Positions 3,679 to 16,081 of a DNA stretch of 16,081 nt are shown here, piece by piece (the first letter of the stretch is position 1; the number at the start of each line of letters is the position of its first letter). Under the pieces are notes generated by a model. The model saw nothing but the letters and a program-made list of their open reading frames with translations. It made no database searches and was not told the DNA's origin. Source of the DNA: Candidatus Thorarchaeota archaeon (GTDB taxonomy: Archaea; Asgardarchaeota; Thorarchaeia; Thorarchaeales; Thorarchaeaceae); the NCBI GenBank assembly GCA_016839605.1, contig JAEOTX010000234.1, positions 1 to 16,081 on the forward strand, read 5' to 3'. A program made the position numbers and the translations under genes.

Positions 3679-4329
3679 GTGGTGGCGACAGCCATGAAAC
3701 TTTCCGAGATTCTTAAACCTATGAGGGCTGAGATCGAAACTGATGATGGAGTTCGAGAGAAGGTACTCCCGCTGTCAAGATCTGCAGTAAGAAAGTGTAG
3801 TGAGTCAATAAAGGAAACCCATAGAGGAAACTTTGACTCAGCTGAGAAGCTGCTATCTGAGGCTCGCGAAACTGCAGAGCAGGCTGCAAAGGAGATGAAA
3901 GGGAGTGAGTTCGTGTCCCGTTCCAAGTCGCTTGATGTTGCATATCAAGAGATAGCAGAAGCGGTAAATCTGTTGTCCCTACTCAGAGACGGTACCTTTA
4001 CTCCGCCTGAGAAGTTCGGGATTCCTACAAGGGCCTACCTCACTGGTCTTGCAGATACTATTGGCGAGCTGCGAAGAGCAGTATTGGACTCGCTTCGGGA
4101 GGAGAGAGTTGATTCTGCAGTGAACTTACTTGGTTTCATGGAGGAGATACTCGACGAGCTGCACACGTTCGATTTCCCAAATGCTCTAGTGCCAGAACTC
4201 AGGAGAAAATGTGATGTTGGCAGGTCTATTATTGAACGAACCCGTGGTGACATTACCGCCGCTATACAACAGAGCAAGTTGGTGAAGGAACTCAGAGGGT
4301 TTGAAGACCGACTTAGAGGCAATCAATAA
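3679..4329 (+). CDS. Translin/TRAX family (C3PO-like) RNA/DNA-binding endonuclease
   Basis: Predicted all-helical. DDGVREKVLPLSR, YQEIAEA, YLTGLADTIGELRR and LRRKCDVGRSIIERTR match the translin family. The start may be ATG 3694. Confidence 0.88.
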   Translation: MVATAMKLSEILKPMRAEIETDDGVREKVLPLSRSAVRKCSESIKETHRGNFDSAEKLLSEARETAEQAAKEMKGSEFVSRSKSLDVAYQEIAEAVNLLSLLRDGTFTPPEKFGIPTRAYLTGLADTIGELRRAVLDSLREERVDSAVNLLGFMEEILDELHTFDFPNALVPELRRKCDVGRSIIERTRGDITAAIQQSKLVKELRGFEDRLRGNQ

Positions 4330-4357
4330 TAAGAGGGAGCAAGGAGAGCAAAGTGAG

Positions 4358-5035
4358 ATGATTGCACCGGACGTTTGGTTCACTCTATATGTATTGGCTC
4401 ATGAGGGTGCAGTCCATAAGAGGGCGGTCTTGACAACGCGAAAGCTTGGTGATCTTCTGGGAGTCAGTCAGCAGACAGCTTCCCGTAGAGTCACATACTG
4501 TGCTGAAGAAGGCTATGTGAGTAGAGTACACACCGCCAATGGGATGCTAATTCAGCTGACAAAGAAAGGTGCCAAAGAACTGAGACGAGTGATGACAAAC
4601 CTAGAGCTCGTCCTTGTTCCACGTGAAGAGGAAATAGTAATTGCAGGACGAGTTGTACATGGTCTTGGAGAAGGAGCATACTACGTCGATGCATATTCGC
4701 CCAGATTTCATGAGTCCCTTGGATTTGAGCCATATTCAGGGACTCTCAATGTCAAAATAGTTGATGATGACTCACGAAGTGCAATCAACAGAATGAAGCA
4801 GACACCTCCACTCATTGTACCAGGGTTCACTTACGAGGGTCGGTCATTTGGAGACGTGGTCTGCTATCGTGTCAAGGTGAATCAGAAAATAGATGGTGCT
4901 GTGGTCATTGCTCAGAGAACTCACCATGGTCAGGAAATCCTAGAGGTAATCTCAGAAGTCAACCTGAGGTCCAAACTGAAAATCAAGGACAACGATCTCG
5001 TGACCCTTACTATTGTCCCGCTGCACAGAGCCTAA
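4358..5035 (+). CDS. ribK: CTP-dependent riboflavin kinase with N-terminal winged HTH (RbkR-like bifunctional regulator/kinase)
   Basis: wHTH TTRKLGDLLGVSQQTASRRV...LTKKG. Kinase motifs GRVVHGLGEGAYYV, LGFEPYSGTLNV, RTHH and LEVISEVNLR. Start moved to ATG 4358. Confidence 0.9.
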   Translation: MIAPDVWFTLYVLAHEGAVHKRAVLTTRKLGDLLGVSQQTASRRVTYCAEEGYVSRVHTANGMLIQLTKKGAKELRRVMTNLELVLVPREEEIVIAGRVVHGLGEGAYYVDAYSPRFHESLGFEPYSGTLNVKIVDDDSRSAINRMKQTPPLIVPGFTYEGRSFGDVVCYRVKVNQKIDGAVVIAQRTHHGQEILEVISEVNLRSKLKIKDNDLVTLTIVPLHRA

Positions 5036-11099: not shown

Positions 11100-11918
11100 C
11101 TATTCCACAATAACTCGAGTACATTGACAGTCTTCGTTGTTAAGAAAGGCCTTCAGATTTCCATAGTTCATCATGGAGAGTAGTCCAACCTCCAGACCTT
11201 GTTCTATTAGTGGCTTGGCTGGAGCTATGGCTTTGAGCTTCCCCTTCATTGCACCACTCGCATCATCGATCCCTGATGCACCCATTCTCTGTAGGGCCGC
11301 GTCAAGGTCATTGAGGTTGATTGTGTCTATGCGAGCCGCATCGGATTTCAGCTTGGGATCCGTTTCATAGATGCCAGACACATCCGATGCAAAGATCAAT
11401 CGTTTGGCACCGAGCTCCTTTGCAATGATAACGGCTAGTTGATCTCCACTCCCTACACTCCACCCCATAGCTGAGTCGACTAAGATGTCACCTCCCAACA
11501 GAGGAACCATGCCAATGGAGGCAAAGCCCTTTAGAGGTTCTAAGAAGTAGTTTGTCATCCGCATCTTCTCAGAGGTCACCATAGAAGATGGATACATCAG
11601 ACACACCGGGATTCCAGCGTTCTGGAGTTCCTTCACAATGATATGTCGAAGTGTGGCAACACTCTCCTGAGTCTTTGAAAGAGGCAGAAGCTGTTCCGGA
11701 CCTAAGAACCCCTTGTGGAGATTATGCTCAAGGACCGGTGGGTGACCGTACGAACCTACTCCATGTAGTAGTACAAGTGATTGGATGGGTCCTTCATCGA
11801 GGCATTCCCCAATCTCGCGGGACACTGATTCTAGGACTTCCTTTCTGTAGGTATACGGCTTTGTCTTGTCGGTCAGCAACGAGCCACCAAGTTTGATGAC
11901 TGTGATGTCTTTGGTCAT
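11100..11918 (-). CDS. ipk: Isopentenyl phosphate kinase (amino acid kinase family)
   Basis: VIKLGGSLLTDK, LHGVGSYGH (IPK-type His), VPLLGGD, GSGDQ, ASDVSGIY, DASGAMKGKL. Confidence 0.85.
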   Translation of the reverse strand: MTKDITVIKLGGSLLTDKTKPYTYRKEVLESVSREIGECLDEGPIQSLVLLHGVGSYGHPPVLEHNLHKGFLGPEQLLPLSKTQESVATLRHIIVKELQNAGIPVCLMYPSSMVTSEKMRMTNYFLEPLKGFASIGMVPLLGGDILVDSAMGWSVGSGDQLAVIIAKELGAKRLIFASDVSGIYETDPKLKSDAARIDTINLNDLDAALQRMGASGIDDASGAMKGKLKAIAPAKPLIEQGLEVGLLSMMNYGNLKAFLNNEDCQCTRVIVE

Positions 11919-11936
11919 TGTAGCGCACCAAAGCAG

Positions 11937-12743
11937 TTAGAACAGACTGAACGGCGCAAATGGCCAGTATAGACCAAGGAATGGTAGCAGTAGTATCATT
12001 ACAATGGCAGCAATGGTGATGGTCAGATTATCAAGCCCCTTGGGAGTAATGGCCTCTACAATGGTGGCAACAAGACTCACTACCAAAATCGGTATGAATA
12101 GGTCTATGACTGAGAATGTCGTTACTTCCAGCGAGAACAGGAACACCAGAATAGTGCTGAACAAGACAGAGCCTATGAACATCCCTATCACGCCAGCCAA
12201 AGTCTTCTCAGCACCGCCAATTCCAAACTTCTTGTCACCGCCATACTTCCGTCCTATCACGTCAGCGAAACCATCGCCTCCAGCCAGACATCCAAAGACA
12301 ATCAGTGCTAGTGGGGTGGCATTGGCTAAGTTCCCATCGGTAGGAACATAGAACCAAAGGATAGCAATAATCACCATTAGGGTTGCATAGTAAAGTGTAC
12401 CTCCGAGCAGCTCTTTGGGATCTCCAGACCTTGACATTGATCCGACAAAGTCCTCATTGATCATCTTTCCAGTGCCAATAGCCACAAACAGGATGACAAA
12501 GAGCAGTGGTGCAATCATTGCCAGCCAACGACTGAAGACTCCACCAGAAAAGAGCATCCAAGTGACTACCCACAGTGGGGCTGCGAAGGTGTGAATGACT
12601 TTCCGTGTTACAGTAGTTGAGAGAGCTCCGCTCTTCTCAATTCTAGCATTGATCTGGACAAGCATCAGTATCAAAAAGAACGAGATAATGAATGCGATAA
12701 CATCCCAGACCAGCTCTAGACCAGGTAAAGGATTGAATACCAT
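11937..12743 (-). CDS. CTP-dependent membrane prenol kinase (phytol/farnesol/dolichol kinase family)
   Basis: Multi-TM protein with RKVIH, SMSRSGDPKELLGGTLYY (resembling plant farnesol/phytol kinases), GDGFADVIGRKYG, KTLAG and DNLTI. ATG 12743 has a GAGGAG SD and a TTTAAA box near 12769-12775. Confidence 0.82.
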   Translation of the reverse strand: MVFNPLPGLELVWDVIAFIISFFLILMLVQINARIEKSGALSTTVTRKVIHTFAAPLWVVTWMLFSGGVFSRWLAMIAPLLFVILFVAIGTGKMINEDFVGSMSRSGDPKELLGGTLYYATLMVIIAILWFYVPTDGNLANATPLALIVFGCLAGGDGFADVIGRKYGGDKKFGIGGAEKTLAGVIGMFIGSVLFSTILVFLFSLEVTTFSVIDLFIPILVVSLVATIVEAITPKGLDNLTITIAAIVMILLLPFLGLYWPFAPFSLF

Positions 12744-12822
12744 AATCAATCTCCTCGGATTGAAGGGTTTTAAAAGGACTCATTCTGCTCACCTAAAAGT
12801 CTGTTGAGAAGATGATGAGCGA

Positions 12823-12854
12823 GAATAAAAGAGAGAAGGGGCAATAGAGCCCCT
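12823..12854 (-). terminator. Hairpin plus pyrimidine-tract terminator after the peroxiredoxin gene
   Basis: AGGGGC (12837-12842) / GCCCCT (12849-12854), followed on the minus strand by TCTCTCTTTTATTC. Confidence 0.5.
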
Positions 12855-12867
12855 GATAGTTGTAAAT

Positions 12868-13515
12868 CTAGAGGTCCTTTTTGCAGAACCACCAATCTGT
12901 GCAGTCGTAGCCCTCTTTGAGACGCTGCTCTGCATCGGCCTTGGTCTTTGGAGGTGGGACAATCACCTTATCGCCTGGTTTCCAGTTAGCTGGAGTAGCG
13001 ACCTTGTGCTTGTCAGAGGTCTGAAACGCATCAATGACTCTCAGAATCTCAGCCATGTTTCGACCATTGCTCAGTGGATAGTAGATCAATGCCCTCAGCT
13101 TGAACTCGGGGTCAATGAAGAACACTGCTCTTACTGCAGCTGTCCCACTCTGAGCGGGATGTATCATTCCGTACTTCTTAGCAACATTCATACTGAGATC
13201 TTCGATGATTGGGAATGGAATCTCAGTTCCGAACTTCTCCTTGATTGTACTAATCCAAGATATGTGGGAATAGATACTGTCAATACTTAAGCCTAGCAGC
13301 TTGACGCCCCGCTTCTCAAGTTCGGGATAGATTTCTGTAAATCCAATGAACTCGGTAGTACAGACAGGGGTAAAGTCTGCAGGATGACTGAACAGAATCA
13401 CCCAGCTCCCTTTGGCCCATTCACTGAACTTGATTGTGCCATCTGTAGTAGCCGCTTCAAAATCAGGTACTTCTTCTCCAATAAGGAGCATTCGTCGTTC
13501 TTCTTGTGCTTCCAT
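12868..13515 (-). CDS. Peroxiredoxin, Prx6/archaeal TDXH type
   Basis: LFSHPADFTPVCTTEF, AVRAVFFIDP, YYPLSNGRN, ATPANWKPGD, and C-terminal CTDWWFC with two extra Cys. Start moved to ATG 13515. Confidence 0.95.
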   Translation of the reverse strand: MEAQEERRMLLIGEEVPDFEAATTDGTIKFSEWAKGSWVILFSHPADFTPVCTTEFIGFTEIYPELEKRGVKLLGLSIDSIYSHISWISTIKEKFGTEIPFPIIEDLSMNVAKKYGMIHPAQSGTAAVRAVFFIDPEFKLRALIYYPLSNGRNMAEILRVIDAFQTSDKHKVATPANWKPGDKVIVPPPKTKADAEQRLKEGYDCTDWWFCKKDL

Positions 13516-13545
13516 TGTAACAAATCCTTGAAATTTGAACATAAT

Positions 13546-13611
13546 CAATAATGATTATTATTTAAGTATTATGCTCCATAAAGTTTAAATCGCTAATAAT
13601 AATCTTTATTA
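13546..13611. promoter_or_regulatory. Divergent promoter with two Fur/Per-box-like 7-1-7 operators
   Basis: CAATAAT-G-ATTATTA (13546-13560) and TAATAAT-C-TTTATTA (13597-13611), each with one mismatch from perfect symmetry. TATA-like elements at 13559-13566 (-) and 13584-13590 (+). Confidence 0.7.
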
Positions 13612-13634
13612 CAATATGTAACCTGAGAGGTACT

Positions 13635-14066
13635 ATGATGAATCTTAGACTGGACGTGGCATCAGTTTTGAGGAAGAATGGACATCGTGCAACTCCTCAA
13701 CGACTTGCAATATACGAAGCCATTTGGAATGCAGGGGACCATCCAACAGTGGATAAGATTCACAGCTCAGCCATAGAAAGGGATCCTACAATTAGCCTAG
13801 CTACCGTCTATAAGGCACTTAGGCTCTTCACTGATATCGGACTTACAAGAGAGATGGCCTTTAGAAAGGAATCAACACGTTATGATCCTGTTGTGGACGA
13901 GCATGTCAACCTAGTATGTAACAGTTGTGGAGAAGTTGAAGACTTCAAATTTAATCCAATCGAGGGGCTAAAAGCCGCGATAGAGAATCGAACAAAATTT
14001 CAGGTCCGTGGACAGAGTTTTGAGGTCTATGGACTCTGTTCTAATTGCAAAGCAAGAATGGAATAG
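13635..14066 (+). CDS. Fur-family transcriptional repressor, PerR-like
   Basis: RATPQRLAI, HPTVDKI, ISLATVYKAL, RYD...HVNLVCNSCGEVED, YGLCSNC (two CxxC). Divergent from the peroxiredoxin gene. Confidence 0.9.
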   Translation: MMNLRLDVASVLRKNGHRATPQRLAIYEAIWNAGDHPTVDKIHSSAIERDPTISLATVYKALRLFTDIGLTREMAFRKESTRYDPVVDEHVNLVCNSCGEVEDFKFNPIEGLKAAIENRTKFQVRGQSFEVYGLCSNCKARME

Positions 14067-14097
14067 AAAAGAAAGAGGAAGGGGGAGTAGGTCCCCC
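14065..14097 (-). terminator. Hairpin plus pyrimidine-tract terminator after the ECF S gene
   Basis: GGGGGA (14081-14086) / TCCCCC (14092-14097), followed on the minus strand by TTCCTCTTTCTTTTCT. Confidence 0.55.
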
Positions 14098-14101
14098 AAG
14101 C

Positions 14102-14716
14102 CTATTGCGGTGGCCGTAGATGTGATACTAGTGTGGTCACTAGTGCGTGCCAGACTCTCGCGAATACTGGTGTCAGGAGCATGACCGATGGAAGACCCAC
14201 TGTGATGAGTGGAAGCATCACGAATCCCAGAGCTACTAGGGTCGCAATGGACTCCACAGTCAGTCCAACTGCTACAACAATCAGGACTGTGAACACAAAT
14301 CCCACTGTAGAGAGGACTGACAGTTTGATGAGTGACCGCCCACTAGTGAGATCATAGGTAGCTAAGCCCACAATGAAACCCAGGAGGCCATAGCCAACCG
14401 CGGGTAGTGTCATCGTCACCACTGTACCCCTGATCGCCAGGTCATAGAAGACAACACCTAGGTACCCAGTGAGGAATCCTGCGAGCGGTCCCCTTATCGC
14501 CGCAACCACACCGATGACGGCTAGCGCAGGAGCGATGCCAAGTTTGAACAATGACACCATCGTGAAGGGCATGGGTACCATGGATAACAGGACGAAGACT
14601 CCGGTTCCGACAAGGGCATAGAACAGGGTCCATGCGAAGTTGTAGCCGTCCTGTATGTAGAACCTCTCAAGGATCGACTTCTTCTCTGTGACTTCAATTA
14701 CTGATTCTTCAGACAT
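14102..14716 (-). CDS. ECF transporter S component (substrate unknown)
   Basis: ~200 aa with 5-6 hydrophobic segments. IAPALAVIGVVAAIRGPLAGFLTGYLG...YDL matches the S-component GPxxG pattern. Confidence 0.7.
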   Translation of the reverse strand: MSEESVIEVTEKKSILERFYIQDGYNFAWTLFYALVGTGVFVLLSMVPMPFTMVSLFKLGIAPALAVIGVVAAIRGPLAGFLTGYLGVVFYDLAIRGTVVTMTLPAVGYGLLGFIVGLATYDLTSGRSLIKLSVLSTVGFVFTVLIVVAVGLTVESIATLVALGFVMLPLITVGLPSVMLLTPVFARVWHALVTTLVSHLRPPQ

Positions 14717-14728
14717 TTTTATACCACC

Positions 14729-16081
14729 TCACATTATCACCAGGTAGTATGATCCTGGCTGTAGAGTCAGTGAATAGTCACTGCCAGCAATGGTCAGGTC
14801 TCTTGGTGTACCATCTCCATATACTGTGGGAGTTGAGTCAAAGTTGCTGAATGTCAGAGTGGCAGCTTGGTCCACCTTGATGTTCAGAACAAAGCCCTCC
14901 TTCACGGGATCCCACTCAGCCTGATACACCCAGATGTTCTCATCGTCAGCCTCGTTTATGTATGGGTAGTCCCAGAATGCTGCTGGCCGTGGTACAACTA
15001 GGTCATTCAGCGTAACTGGATTGGTTCCCCATATCCATCCGTATGCTATGCTAGTCTGAAGGAATGGTTCCAGACTTGATGTGTCCCAGTGCATCTCCCG
15101 ACCATCTGCAGACCACACCTTGTTGTACAGACCGGAGAGGAAATTCAGAATCCTCTGTACTGTGTTGAAGTCACCCTCTTGTTTGGAGAGAGCAAGCGTG
15201 AACAAGCAGGCCAGAAACTCGAATGTGCCAAAGTTGCTGGTAGAGTACATCGAGTCAACGAAGTACATCTGGTCTCCAGATAGCTCTTTGCCGTACTGCT
15301 CAATGAACACTGAGTAGTCCTCATCGGTCACTTCTGGTTGAAGGAAGTCCATGAACTCCAGAGACCATGCAACCCCATAGCCTCGAGACCTCAGATTCCC
15401 CTCTGTGCTGAATGGTGAGAGACGGTTACCAGGGAACTCCTGTTGAGGCCCCTCCGTTGGTTGTTGAAAACCAAAGGGCTCCTGCACAAAGTAGCCATCA
15501 ACATAGAGGTCATACTGATCCTGCATGATGGTATTTGCAAAATTGAGTCCATAGTCCCAAATCGGCATGTAGTTAGTAGAATACATATTATCATAGAGTC
15601 CTGTTGCATACACTGGGATGCTGTTACACTGGACCCAGACTTCGTAGGGTTCACAGGGTATGAGACCGCATTCCCAGATGCCTCCCTCTTGAGGATTACC
15701 AAAGCCATCTGTAGTCAGAGAGTTGTTCCAGTCTTCAACATAGTAGGTGATCTCATCAACGAACTCTCCAGTGTTGAAGTTCCGCTCATGGAAAAGCTCC
15801 ATCAAGGCATAGTGTCCAGTCCACATGATGTTGGCAGGGCCTCTCCACCCACCTGTATAGATATCGTCAGCATCGGGAGTGAATGTGTCAGGATAATAGT
15901 ACCCTGTCCAGTTCTGTGTAATCGAGGCGTATTCCCATTCGAAATACTCAATGGAGTCATTCCCCCAGTCAGCAACAGATGTATTGAACTTCCTGATCAG
16001 ATTATCAGAAATCTCTTCGTAATAGCTTGTTCGGTAACCAGGAGTTGTTTCATAGTACATAGCCAGAGAATATGCCATGAA
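14729..16081 (-). CDS. Linalool dehydratase/isomerase-like protein (5' end outside the window)
   Basis: FMAYSLA, ANIMWTGHYALM (NIMWTGH at 15812-15832) and IPCEPYEVWVQCNS (CEP...QC at 15626-15655) parallel the Castellaniella defragrans Ldi motifs NIMYKGHLNLM and VCEPDNYFVQCNS, as recalled. The frame stays open to the window edge (TTC precedes ATG 16078). Confidence 0.75.
   Translation of the reverse strand, partial: FMAYSLAMYYETTPGYRTSYYEEISDNLIRKFNTSVADWGNDSIEYFEWEYASITQNWTGYYYPDTFTPDADDIYTGGWRGPANIMWTGHYALMELFHERNFNTGEFVDEITYYVEDWNNSLTTDGFGNPQEGGIWECGLIPCEPYEVWVQCNSIPVYATGLYDNMYSTNYMPIWDYGLNFANTIMQDQYDLYVDGYFVQEPFGFQQPTEGPQQEFPGNRLSPFSTEGNLRSRGYGVAWSLEFMDFLQPEVTDEDYSVFIEQYGKELSGDQMYFVDSMYSTSNFGTFEFLACLFTLALSKQEGDFNTVQRILNFLSGLYNKVWSADGREMHWDTSSLEPFLQTSIAYGWIWGTNPVTLNDLVVPRPAAFWDYPYINEADDENIWVYQAEWDPVKEGFVLNIKVDQAATLTFSNFDSTPTVYGDGTPRDLTIAGSDYSLTLQPGSYYLVIM

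Follow-up and report, generated by a model that had tools for sequence, protein, structure and literature searches.

A putative two-kinase prenol salvage operon beside an Ldi-like/S-component-like gene pair in Thorarchaeota

Introduction

Plants, animals, parasites and an archaeon can phosphorylate free farnesol, geranylgeraniol and phytol again, and outside plants the gene for the second kinase of this route, from prenyl phosphate to prenyl diphosphate, is without assignment (PMC10849223, PMC9385802). Here we analyse two neighbouring gene pairs on a 16,081-bp stretch of archaeal DNA (GCA_016839605.1, contig JAEOTX010000234.1), hereafter the window. The window is one entire contig (C189) of an Asgard metagenome-assembled genome (MAG) that is 80% complete, and close homologues carry the label Candidatus Thorarchaeota. 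One pair encodes a multi-pass membrane protein similar to polyprenol kinases (PolK-like) and a paralogue of isopentenyl phosphate kinase (IPK) that we call IPK2. The other encodes an enzyme similar to linalool dehydratase/isomerase (Ldi; the enzyme is hereafter Ldi-like) and a small membrane protein similar to the S-components of energy-coupling factor (ECF) transporters (S-like).

The phytol salvage of plants and cyanobacteria (phytol kinase VTE5 with phytyl-phosphate kinase VTE6) and the farnesol-geranylgeraniol kinases FOLK and PfPolK follow a two-step logic, from alcohol to monophosphate to diphosphate, that the first pair would have in common with them. As in VTE5, FOLK and PfPolK, the first enzyme is a predicted multi-pass membrane protein with an Arg-Lys-x-x-His clamp (PMC10849223). 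VTE6 is a COG1836 membrane protein, whereas the second kinase here is a soluble IPK paralogue of the amino-acid-kinase fold. Unlike the VTE5/VTE6 systems, the present genes form an operon in archaea and Chloroflexota, and the first protein gives no curated polyprenol-kinase or PF01148 score. The archaeal IPKs of M. jannaschii, T. acidophilum and M. thermautotrophicus (3k4o, 3lkk, 3ll9, 7lnt, 8u0k) share with IPK2 the same sequence model, the catalytic residues and the usual range of pocket residues (PMC8500459). IPK2 differs from them as a member of what appears to be a distinct accessory clade beside a PolK-like gene, in genomes that hold another IPK, with one Chloroflexia genome (G063) excepted.

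In Sulfolobus, kinase activities towards geranylgeraniol and towards geranylgeranyl phosphate are known only biochemically (PMC9385802). As that paper and PMC10849223 relate the original work of 1996, this is likewise a case of two kinases that lead from prenol to diphosphate in an archaeon, with no genes assigned there. The engineered isoprenol and isopentenol utilisation pathways (PMC8500459, PMC9654404) have the identical scheme with an IPK as the second kinase. They are synthetic and use unrelated soluble first kinases, whereas the route considered here would be natural and operon-encoded, with a membrane protein as the first kinase.

For the second pair, the closest described enzyme is Ldi/LinD of Castellaniella defragrans (5g1u, 5hlr, 5i3t), which has the (α/α)6 barrel, the extracytoplasmic location and equivalents of Met125, His129, Cys171 and Cys180 in common with the predicted Ldi-like protein. 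The two are ~18% identical; the Ldi-like protein adds an N-terminal membrane helix and a C-terminal β-sandwich of ~80 residues, and counterparts of Asp39' and Tyr45 are not recognisable in it. Ldi/LinD belongs to a monoterpene degradation cluster, whereas the Ldi-like enzyme is encoded with the S-like protein and is predicted to bind it. The S-like protein has the same small six-helix membrane fold, by its model, as the ECF S-components ThiT (3rlb), RibU (5kbw), FolT (5jsz), PanT (6zg3) and BioY (4dve). It differs from them in scoring below the Pfam cut-off, in having no adjacent ECF module and in its obligate pairing with an enzyme predicted to be exported.

Results

The genes in question lie on the minus strand of the window:

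11100-11918, minus strand: IPK2, isopentenyl phosphate kinase paralogue of 272 aa (protein P0001), downstream gene of the kinase operon
11937-12749, minus strand: open reading frame (ORF) of the PolK-like multi-pass membrane protein, of dolichol/phytol/prenol kinase type; likely coding sequence 11937-12743; upstream gene of the operon
14102-14716, minus strand: small membrane protein of 204 aa with a predicted ECF S-component-like fold, partner downstream of the Ldi-like gene
14729-16081, minus strand: predicted Ldi-family enzyme, an (α/α)6 barrel followed by a C-terminal β-sandwich; the reading frame runs off the end of the window

We regard them as two independent two-gene modules that are neighbours by ancestral gene order in one Thorarchaeota family, and not as a single pathway; we put the probability of this reading at about 0.6. 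The gene arrangement is far beyond chance, and each pair recurs in dozens of genomes. A previous reading of the window from its letters and ORFs (the sequence-only reading) had described four minus-strand genes in two tight pairs, and the ORF list agrees, with 18 bp (11919-11936) between the kinase genes and 12 bp (14717-14728) between the Ldi-like and S-like genes. The identities that it gave to the four genes (Ldi-like enzyme, ECF S-component-like protein, kinase and IPK) hold at the level of family or fold. The PolK-like protein probably starts at the ATG at 12743, because its orthologues begin with MVFNPL. As the window is the whole contig, the 5' end of the Ldi-like gene is cut, and ~100 N-terminal codons are missing, including the N-terminal membrane/signal helix.

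The kinase pair is widespread. An alignment of the PolK-like family was searched against one genome per species, which gave 80 loci, 79 of which extend past the PolK-like gene. An IPK2-type gene follows 11-130 bp downstream on the same strand in 75 of these 79. The loci span Promethearchaeum syntrophicum MK-D1 (53% and 52% identity for the two proteins), Hermod- and Hodarchaeota, a MAG labelled Bathyarchaeia and six Chloroflexota MAGs, whose proteins are 48-52% (PolK-like) and 40-51% (IPK2) identical to those of Asgard archaea. The order of the two genes is inverted in G041, where they are still adjacent. On this comparative evidence the pair is a genuine and deeply conserved operon, and its presence in Chloroflexota implies transfer between domains, for which we claim no direction. 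The Chloroflexota loci (L128-L131, L133 and L134) come from Caldilineaceae, Chloroflexia, Promineifilaceae and Ardenticatenaceae MAGs; L128, from G064, has two TGA stops inside the IPK2 reading frame.

Some loci deviate. In G027 (C22:67187-72090) ~3.3 kb separate the PolK-like gene from IPK2, and a 49-residue IPK2-like fragment with stops lies beside the former. In G004, a closed genome, what follows the PolK-like gene is a remnant that covers no more than the first 44 residues of IPK2 (C1:1097463-1097594). Both arrangements look like decay or rearrangement of the operon. One further locus, L095 (DATKTW010000156.1), is labelled Candidatus Nanopelagicaceae bacterium and carries an Asgard-type pair (59% and 47% identity); it shares a downstream MFS gene with Loki-type loci and is probably an archaeal contig that was wrongly binned with an actinobacterial MAG.

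Thirteen PolK-like sequences were aligned, reaching paralogues at 24-31% identity. Several motifs are invariant or nearly so in all of them: R49-K50-x-x-H53, G158-D-G-x-A-D-x-x-G-R-x-Y-G, E-K-T/S-x-x-G and V-E-x-x-x-P-x-x-x-D-N. The residues conserved in the C-terminal region are G158-D159-G160, G166, Y169, E181-K-T and D240-N241. We take the nucleotide-binding region of the polyprenol kinase family, which includes the dolichol kinases Sec59/DOLK, VTE5, FOLK and PfPolK, to read GDGxADxxGRxxG, then K-S/T-x-x-G, then a DN motif. An RKxxH charged clamp has been described for the Plasmodium prenol kinase PfPolK (PMC10849223), and the RKxxH of the PolK-like protein corresponds to it in a comparison with that paper. 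Homologues are annotated in public databases as dolichol kinase, phytol kinase or polyprenol kinase family, and also as phosphatidate cytidylyltransferase. The sole PDB profile matches are to CdsA (4q2e/4q2g) over the nucleotide-binding stretch, at a non-significant E of 3.7. A search of the genome with PF01148 found only another gene, on contig C101. A second PolK-like paralogue, 24-28% identical, is encoded on C160. We accept the PolK-like protein as a putative member of the polyprenol-kinase superfamily on its motifs only.

IPK2 scores 160.6 bits on the IPK model NF040647 (cut-off 120), and its best PDB matches are the IPKs 8u0k and 7lnt. The catalytic features of the family, namely the His of the GSxGH motif, a Lys/Gly loop near the N-terminus and an Asp in the GD motif, are kept as K9, G11, the catalytic H59 and D144 in P0001 and in all 11 aligned IPK2 sequences. 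A second IPK of the same genome, on contig C205, scores higher on the model (191.7 bits), shares 27% identity with P0001 and has genes for a HerA-like ATPase, GlmS and SufS as neighbours. The sequence-only reading had raised a second ipk in a mevalonate cluster as a point to check; a second ipk does exist, and no mevalonate gene cluster was found around either copy, in the window or on C205.

Which of the two serves the housekeeping step is suggested by their distribution. Among the 60 relatives compared, the C205-type IPK is present in 34 of the 36 genomes of the same family. Five genomes (G018, G019, G022, G031 and G034; 92-98% complete) have neither the window-type IPK2 nor the window-type PolK-like gene and still carry the C205-type IPK. 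A tree of 50 Asgard IPKs groups the PolK-linked copies of three families in a single clade (SH-aLRT 97) and the universal Thorarchaeota IPKs in a separate one (SH-aLRT 99), with the deep forks left without resolution. MK-D1 and one Hermodarchaeote also have a separate, solitary IPK that scores higher than the linked copy. These comparisons point to IPK2 as a dedicated accessory paralogue and not the housekeeping copy. The earlier caveat that IPK also serves the normal mevalonate pathway is thereby lifted where IPK2 is an extra paralogue, yet it may stand for G063, which has the linked IPK only.

Four pocket residues limit chain length in IPK (PMC8500459). We mapped them through the 8u0k and 7lnt alignments onto Y70, V73, V130 and I140 of the THA enzyme in that paper. 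The corresponding positions R1-R4 are L80, T83, I145 and V155 in IPK2, V or I/I/V/I in the universal Thorarchaeota IPK and F/T/A/I in other Asgard IPKs. Behind R4, IPK2 has a conserved V-G/C-S segment in place of I-L-S. An enlarged alkyl pocket was sought in R1-R4 as a sign of long-chain substrates and gave no signal either way; the pocket residues are unremarkable, so chain length cannot be read from the IPK2 sequence.

Other variations in the IPK family were noted along the way. The universal Thorarchaeota IPK (L001:7046-7849 and other C205-type proteins) has Leu in place of the first His of HGxGSFGH (column H52), and two IPK2 sequences, L007 and L008, have Gln in the same column. In some other Asgard families the IPK domain lies inside longer, fusion-like ORFs of ~450 aa or ~630 aa:

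L037:1990-3345, long IPK-containing ORF
L044:1975-3309, long IPK-containing ORF
L049:2557-4467, long IPK-containing ORF
L050:1472-3364, long IPK-containing ORF

Beside the kinase pair, a UbiA-family prenyltransferase gene lies directly upstream on the same strand in MK-D1 and in four other Loki-type loci:

L112:2082-2960 (NZ_CP042905.2, ~2727296-2728174), plus strand: UbiA-family prenyltransferase of MK-D1
L120:1978-2886, L121:1342-2223, L122:1360-2247 and L132:1341-2219: UbiA-family prenyltransferases of the other Loki-type loci

The best model for this gene is heme O synthase TIGR01473, at 197-205 bits and below the cut-off of 210.3. It is a putative consumer of prenyl diphosphate beside the putative producers. 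A small HTH_10 protein is encoded between the UbiA-family gene and the PolK-like gene in three of the five loci.

The relation between the two pairs was followed in 61 genomes. Both occur in 17 of them; in 12 of these 17 they lie within ~2 kb of each other in the same order, and in five they are on different contigs or far apart. The linkage that the sequence-only reading saw in one genome is thus not unique to it. The Ldi-like/S-like pair occurs alone in four genomes (G022, G031, G048 and G058; 92-98% complete or closed), and the kinase pair alone in at least 15. In the species-wide scan, the Ldi-like/S-like pair is found within 3 kb of the PolK-like gene in 18 of the 80 loci, all of Thorarchaeota type, with a PolK identity of 62% or more. 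Within that distance it is absent from all 32 PolK-IPK2 loci below 60% identity.

Twelve related loci of the family share a syntenic block. It runs through Tyw1, translin, a CTP-dependent riboflavin kinase, PCMT, a small ORF, Trm5, one or more NTases and GT4, continues with IPK2 and the PolK-like gene, then prx/perR (variable), then the S-like and Ldi-like genes, and ends with SHMT and others. In G022 the block and the Ldi-like/S-like pair remain and only PolK-IPK2 is lost; G011 retains the block with PolK-IPK2 and lacks only the Ldi-like/S-like pair. Since the linkage of the pairs is confined to one family and lies inside a conserved housekeeping block, shared ancestry explains it. The synteny and co-occurrence comparison proposed by the sequence-only reading gave a divided answer: each pair is conserved, and the distant kinase loci lack the other pair nearby.

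The Ldi-like protein is predicted from its model to be a true Ldi-family (α/α)6 barrel. PF18566 (cut-off 26.1) matches the truncated window protein at 37.8 bits over a 35-residue stretch only, a full-length orthologue at 46.9 bits and the homologue from family f13 at 77.9 bits. A profile of the Ldi-like family finds Ldi in the PDB at E 7e-22. The Ldi residues M125, H129, C171 and C180 align to the invariant M180, H184, C237 and C246 of the orthologue family; three of them are named C170, C179 and H128 (for Cys171, Cys180 and His129) in the numbering of PMC12455561. The AlphaFold2 (AF2) model of an 82%-identical full-length orthologue (pLDDT 89.4) has Ldi 5g1u as its best Foldseek match (E 7.7e-14, TMt 0.78). 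The top matches are all Ldi, and the next fold, GH105, follows at E 7e-5, nine orders of magnitude behind. Full-length orthologues have 540-560 aa, with a C-terminal β-sandwich and an N-terminus in which a basic stretch precedes a hydrophobic helix at residues 9-26. From these features the enzyme is predicted to be exported or membrane-anchored, with an extracytoplasmic location.

The S-like gene directly follows the Ldi-like gene in every genome that carries either, including family f13 (two closed genomes, 38% identity). Its AF2 model (pLDDT 81) was searched against the PDB with Foldseek, and the top 23 matches are all ECF S-components (ThiT, FolT, RibU, PanT and BioY), with TM values of 0.5-0.66, a probability of ~1.0 and weak E-values of 0.06-0.6. 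Four genes of the EcfT/CbiQ family are found elsewhere in the genome. The weak sequence matches of the S-like protein are to RibU, and the CTP-dependent riboflavin kinase encoded inside the conserved block has a MarR-type domain at its N-terminus (window 4301-5035, plus strand); no evidence of a connection between the two was seen.

A complex of the cognate Ldi-like and S-like proteins of G016 was modelled. It scored 0.72 (runs 0.72, 0.74 and 0.69), and the best control scored 0.00; of 80 solved complexes 58 came up to the mark for this score, as did 2 of 110 mismatched pairs. At least 89% of the contacts are common to the runs, and the partner has a pLDDT of at least 80. In the model, the N-terminal helix of the Ldi-like protein packs on helices of the S-like protein, and barrel residues 365-437 cover the outer loops 48-61, 91-105 and 151-169 of the latter. 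The modelling supports, but does not show, binding of the two. To our knowledge, there is no solved complex of Ldi with an S-component, and we know of no described S-component that is paired with an exported enzyme. Tandem double Ldi-like/S-like pairs were observed in G016 (L003:7221-11961) and in G003 (L005:9038-14962), with paralogues ~53-57% identical; in G003 a prx-perR pair lies between the two copies.

Neighbouring genes and transcription signals

The remaining features of this part of the window are as follows; the A/T box and the two hairpins were read from the sequence.

12768-12775, minus strand: A/T box TTTTAAAA, possible archaeal TATA element, ~28 nt upstream of the PolK-like ATG
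12821-12854, minus strand: terminator-like hairpin (AGGGGC...GCCCCT) with a T-rich run, downstream of prx
12868-13548, minus strand: 1-Cys-type peroxiredoxin gene (prx), between the two pairs (NF009668 312.7 bits; PF00578 and PF10417)
13635-14066, plus strand: Fur-family (PerR-like) regulator gene, divergent from prx (PF01475 98 bits)
~14098-14066: terminator-like hairpin with a T-run, after the S-like gene

The family models match a peroxiredoxin and a Fur/PerR regulator, as the sequence-only reading had it when it placed prx and perR between the pairs; PerR is the best NCBIfam model for the regulator at 118.9 bits, under its cut-off of 180. Its caution that putative terminators separate the pairs, which would not form one operon, agrees with the hairpins and T-runs seen after prx and after the S-like gene. 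Given these sites and the A/T box upstream of the kinase gene, the pairs are probably separate transcription units in the source genome. In related loci prx lies between the pairs in some cases and not in others.

Around the modules in distant genomes, no recurring isoprenoid or ECF gene with an obvious link was found, except the UbiA-family gene. The neighbours there include a HAD hydrolase, CoaBC, ThyX, a radical SAM protein, an ABC ATPase, FTR1, ArsR, YgbA, an MFS transporter and a sulphur-transport protein. In Loki-type loci (L097, L098, L104, L113-L115 and others) a sulphur-transport gene (PF04143) and three small ORFs lie upstream of PolK-IPK2, and a YgbA_NO-family gene and an MFS transporter gene lie downstream.

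Discussion

The product class of the polyprenol-kinase family is the substrate class of IPK (PMC10849223, PMC8500459). Because polyprenol kinases make prenyl monophosphates and IPKs make diphosphates from them, the simplest reading of the kinase pair is a two-step module from alcohol to diphosphate. In this module (A, 11100-12743), a homologue of CTP-type membrane prenol/polyprenol kinases would phosphorylate a free isoprenoid alcohol to the monophosphate, from which the dedicated IPK2 would make the diphosphate. With this product available again to prenyltransferases, the module would be a route of salvage or recycling, while the other IPK, on C205, would serve the housekeeping mevalonate step. 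In module B (14102-16081), an exported or membrane-anchored Ldi-family enzyme is probably seated on a membrane protein of the S-component fold. There, on the outer side of the cell and right over its partner's binding face, it would hydrate, dehydrate or isomerise an alkenol. The kinase activities, the nucleotide donor, the chain length, the Ldi-like substrate, transport, a hand-over from B to A and the destination in lipid synthesis are what we infer in this scheme.

The sequence-only reading had proposed a single salvage pathway of all four genes, in which the Ldi-like enzyme converts terpenes or tertiary prenols outside the cell, the S-like protein imports the products and the PolK-like protein and IPK2 phosphorylate them twice for lipids. 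Its parts have held, the kinase/IPK operon and the Ldi-like/S-like pair being conserved each by itself; the step that joins them has fared less well. The order Ldi-like, S-like, a gap of 0-2 kb, PolK-like, IPK2 on a single strand, seen in 12 of 17 relatives with both pairs, from five genera, is what such a pathway would leave, the S-like and PolK-like genes being only 175-213 bp apart in G016, G003 and G026. A predicted extracytoplasmic enzyme docked on the S-like protein also fits conversion outside followed by uptake, and IPK2 is, as this pathway would have it, an accessory paralogue. Against this, the linkage is found in one family only, where the flanking housekeeping genes are equally conserved in order. 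The 32 more distant kinase loci are without the other pair nearby, each pair is found without the other (in four and in at least 15 genomes), and terminator-like sites and an oppositely oriented perR lie between the pairs in the source genome. Inherited gene order explains the linkage as well as function does, and we therefore rate the four-gene pathway as unlikely. At the other extreme, the kinase pair might be plain housekeeping, with a dolichol kinase for N-glycosylation or a CdsA/CarS-type cytidylyltransferase next to the mevalonate IPK and no meaning in their adjacency. Public names for homologues (dolichol kinase, phosphatidate cytidylyltransferase), the pocket of IPK2, which resembles that of a C5 enzyme, and the single Chloroflexia genome with only the linked IPK all speak for it. 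Yet nearly all relatives have a separate C160-type PolK-like protein and C205-type IPK, including those that lack the window pair; the two genes stay or disappear together, neither being present in five high-quality genomes; they remain neighbours in different Asgard classes and also in Chloroflexota; and the PolK-like protein has no PF01148 match. We consider this account very unlikely.

An alternative of another kind concerns module B, which might act on endogenous isoprenoids of the membrane or envelope, or else on an alkenol that is not a terpenoid, with the S-like protein presenting a lipid and not importing a nutrient; hydration of double bonds in lipid chains to tertiary hydroxyl groups would be an example. 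The complex model, in which the membrane helix of the enzyme packs on the S-like protein and the barrel covers its outer loops, suits this, as do the lack of adjacent EcfA/EcfT genes in the loci examined, the tandem duplications in G016 and G003, and the many tertiary alcohols, up to C13-C16, that Ldi accepts (PMC12455561). A transporter, however, is what the top structural matches of the S-like protein (all vitamin-type ECF S-components) and the EcfT homologues of the genome fit, and this alternative seems doubtful to us.

The reading of two independent modules has to be set against several observations that weigh against it or against the roles that it assigns. Of the 17 genomes in which both modules occur, 12 have them close together and in the same order, which may mean a loose functional link between the two. 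As to the first kinase, no Pfam or NCBIfam model matches the PolK-like protein, the C160 paralogue or the distant orthologues up to E = 10, so that its family membership depends on the motifs and on the names given by annotators. P0001 is 30-37% identical to the single IPKs of other Asgard lineages and 27-28% to the C205-type IPK of its own genome. G063, from Chloroflexia, showed no IPK other than the PolK-linked one, and there IPK2 may also be the housekeeping enzyme. The L/T/I/V pocket of IPK2 lies within the range of ordinary C5 enzymes, which leaves a mismatch standing between a membrane kinase and a soluble kinase of short-chain type. In the Ldi-like family the position of Asp39', a residue that Ldi takes from the neighbouring protomer, varies and is Ser in the orthologue, and an insertion covers that of Tyr45, in a part where the N-terminal alignment is weak (11.5 bits). 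The S-like protein stays below the cut-offs of its sequence models (PF07155, 22.8 bits against 26.7; NF010182, 24.7 bits against 99), and no EcfA or EcfT gene adjoins its gene in any locus examined.

The PolK-like/IPK2 operon is in our view the most valuable result, as it is a concrete gene pair for assay, and experiments are possible because the operon is present in a cultured Asgard archaeon, MK-D1. A further lead, independent of the operon, is the predicted complex of the Ldi-like and S-component-like proteins. We found no published account of a PolK/IPK or an Ldi/S pairing in Asgard archaea, in a literature coverage that was incomplete and is no proof of novelty. If the proposed activities are true, the operon would be what nature has in place of the isoprenol pathways engineered for biotechnology (PMC8500459), and an exported Ldi-family enzyme on an S-component-like protein would be an unreported coupling of an extracellular enzyme to a membrane binding protein. 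If they hold for C15-C20 alcohols, the operon would offer a mechanism for the isoprenoid recycling that has been inferred from isotope labelling in sediment archaea (bioRxiv 10.64898/2026.05.15.725266). In its widest form, which we think improbable as a whole, the operon would supply the natural and so far unassigned genes for prenol salvage in archaea and in certain bacteria, with the IPK paralogue as the missing prenyl-phosphate kinase. The docked Ldi-like/S-component complex of Thorarchaeota would then be a front end that both converts and captures sedimentary terpenoid alcohols, and the whole would give a mechanism for benthic isoprenoid recycling.

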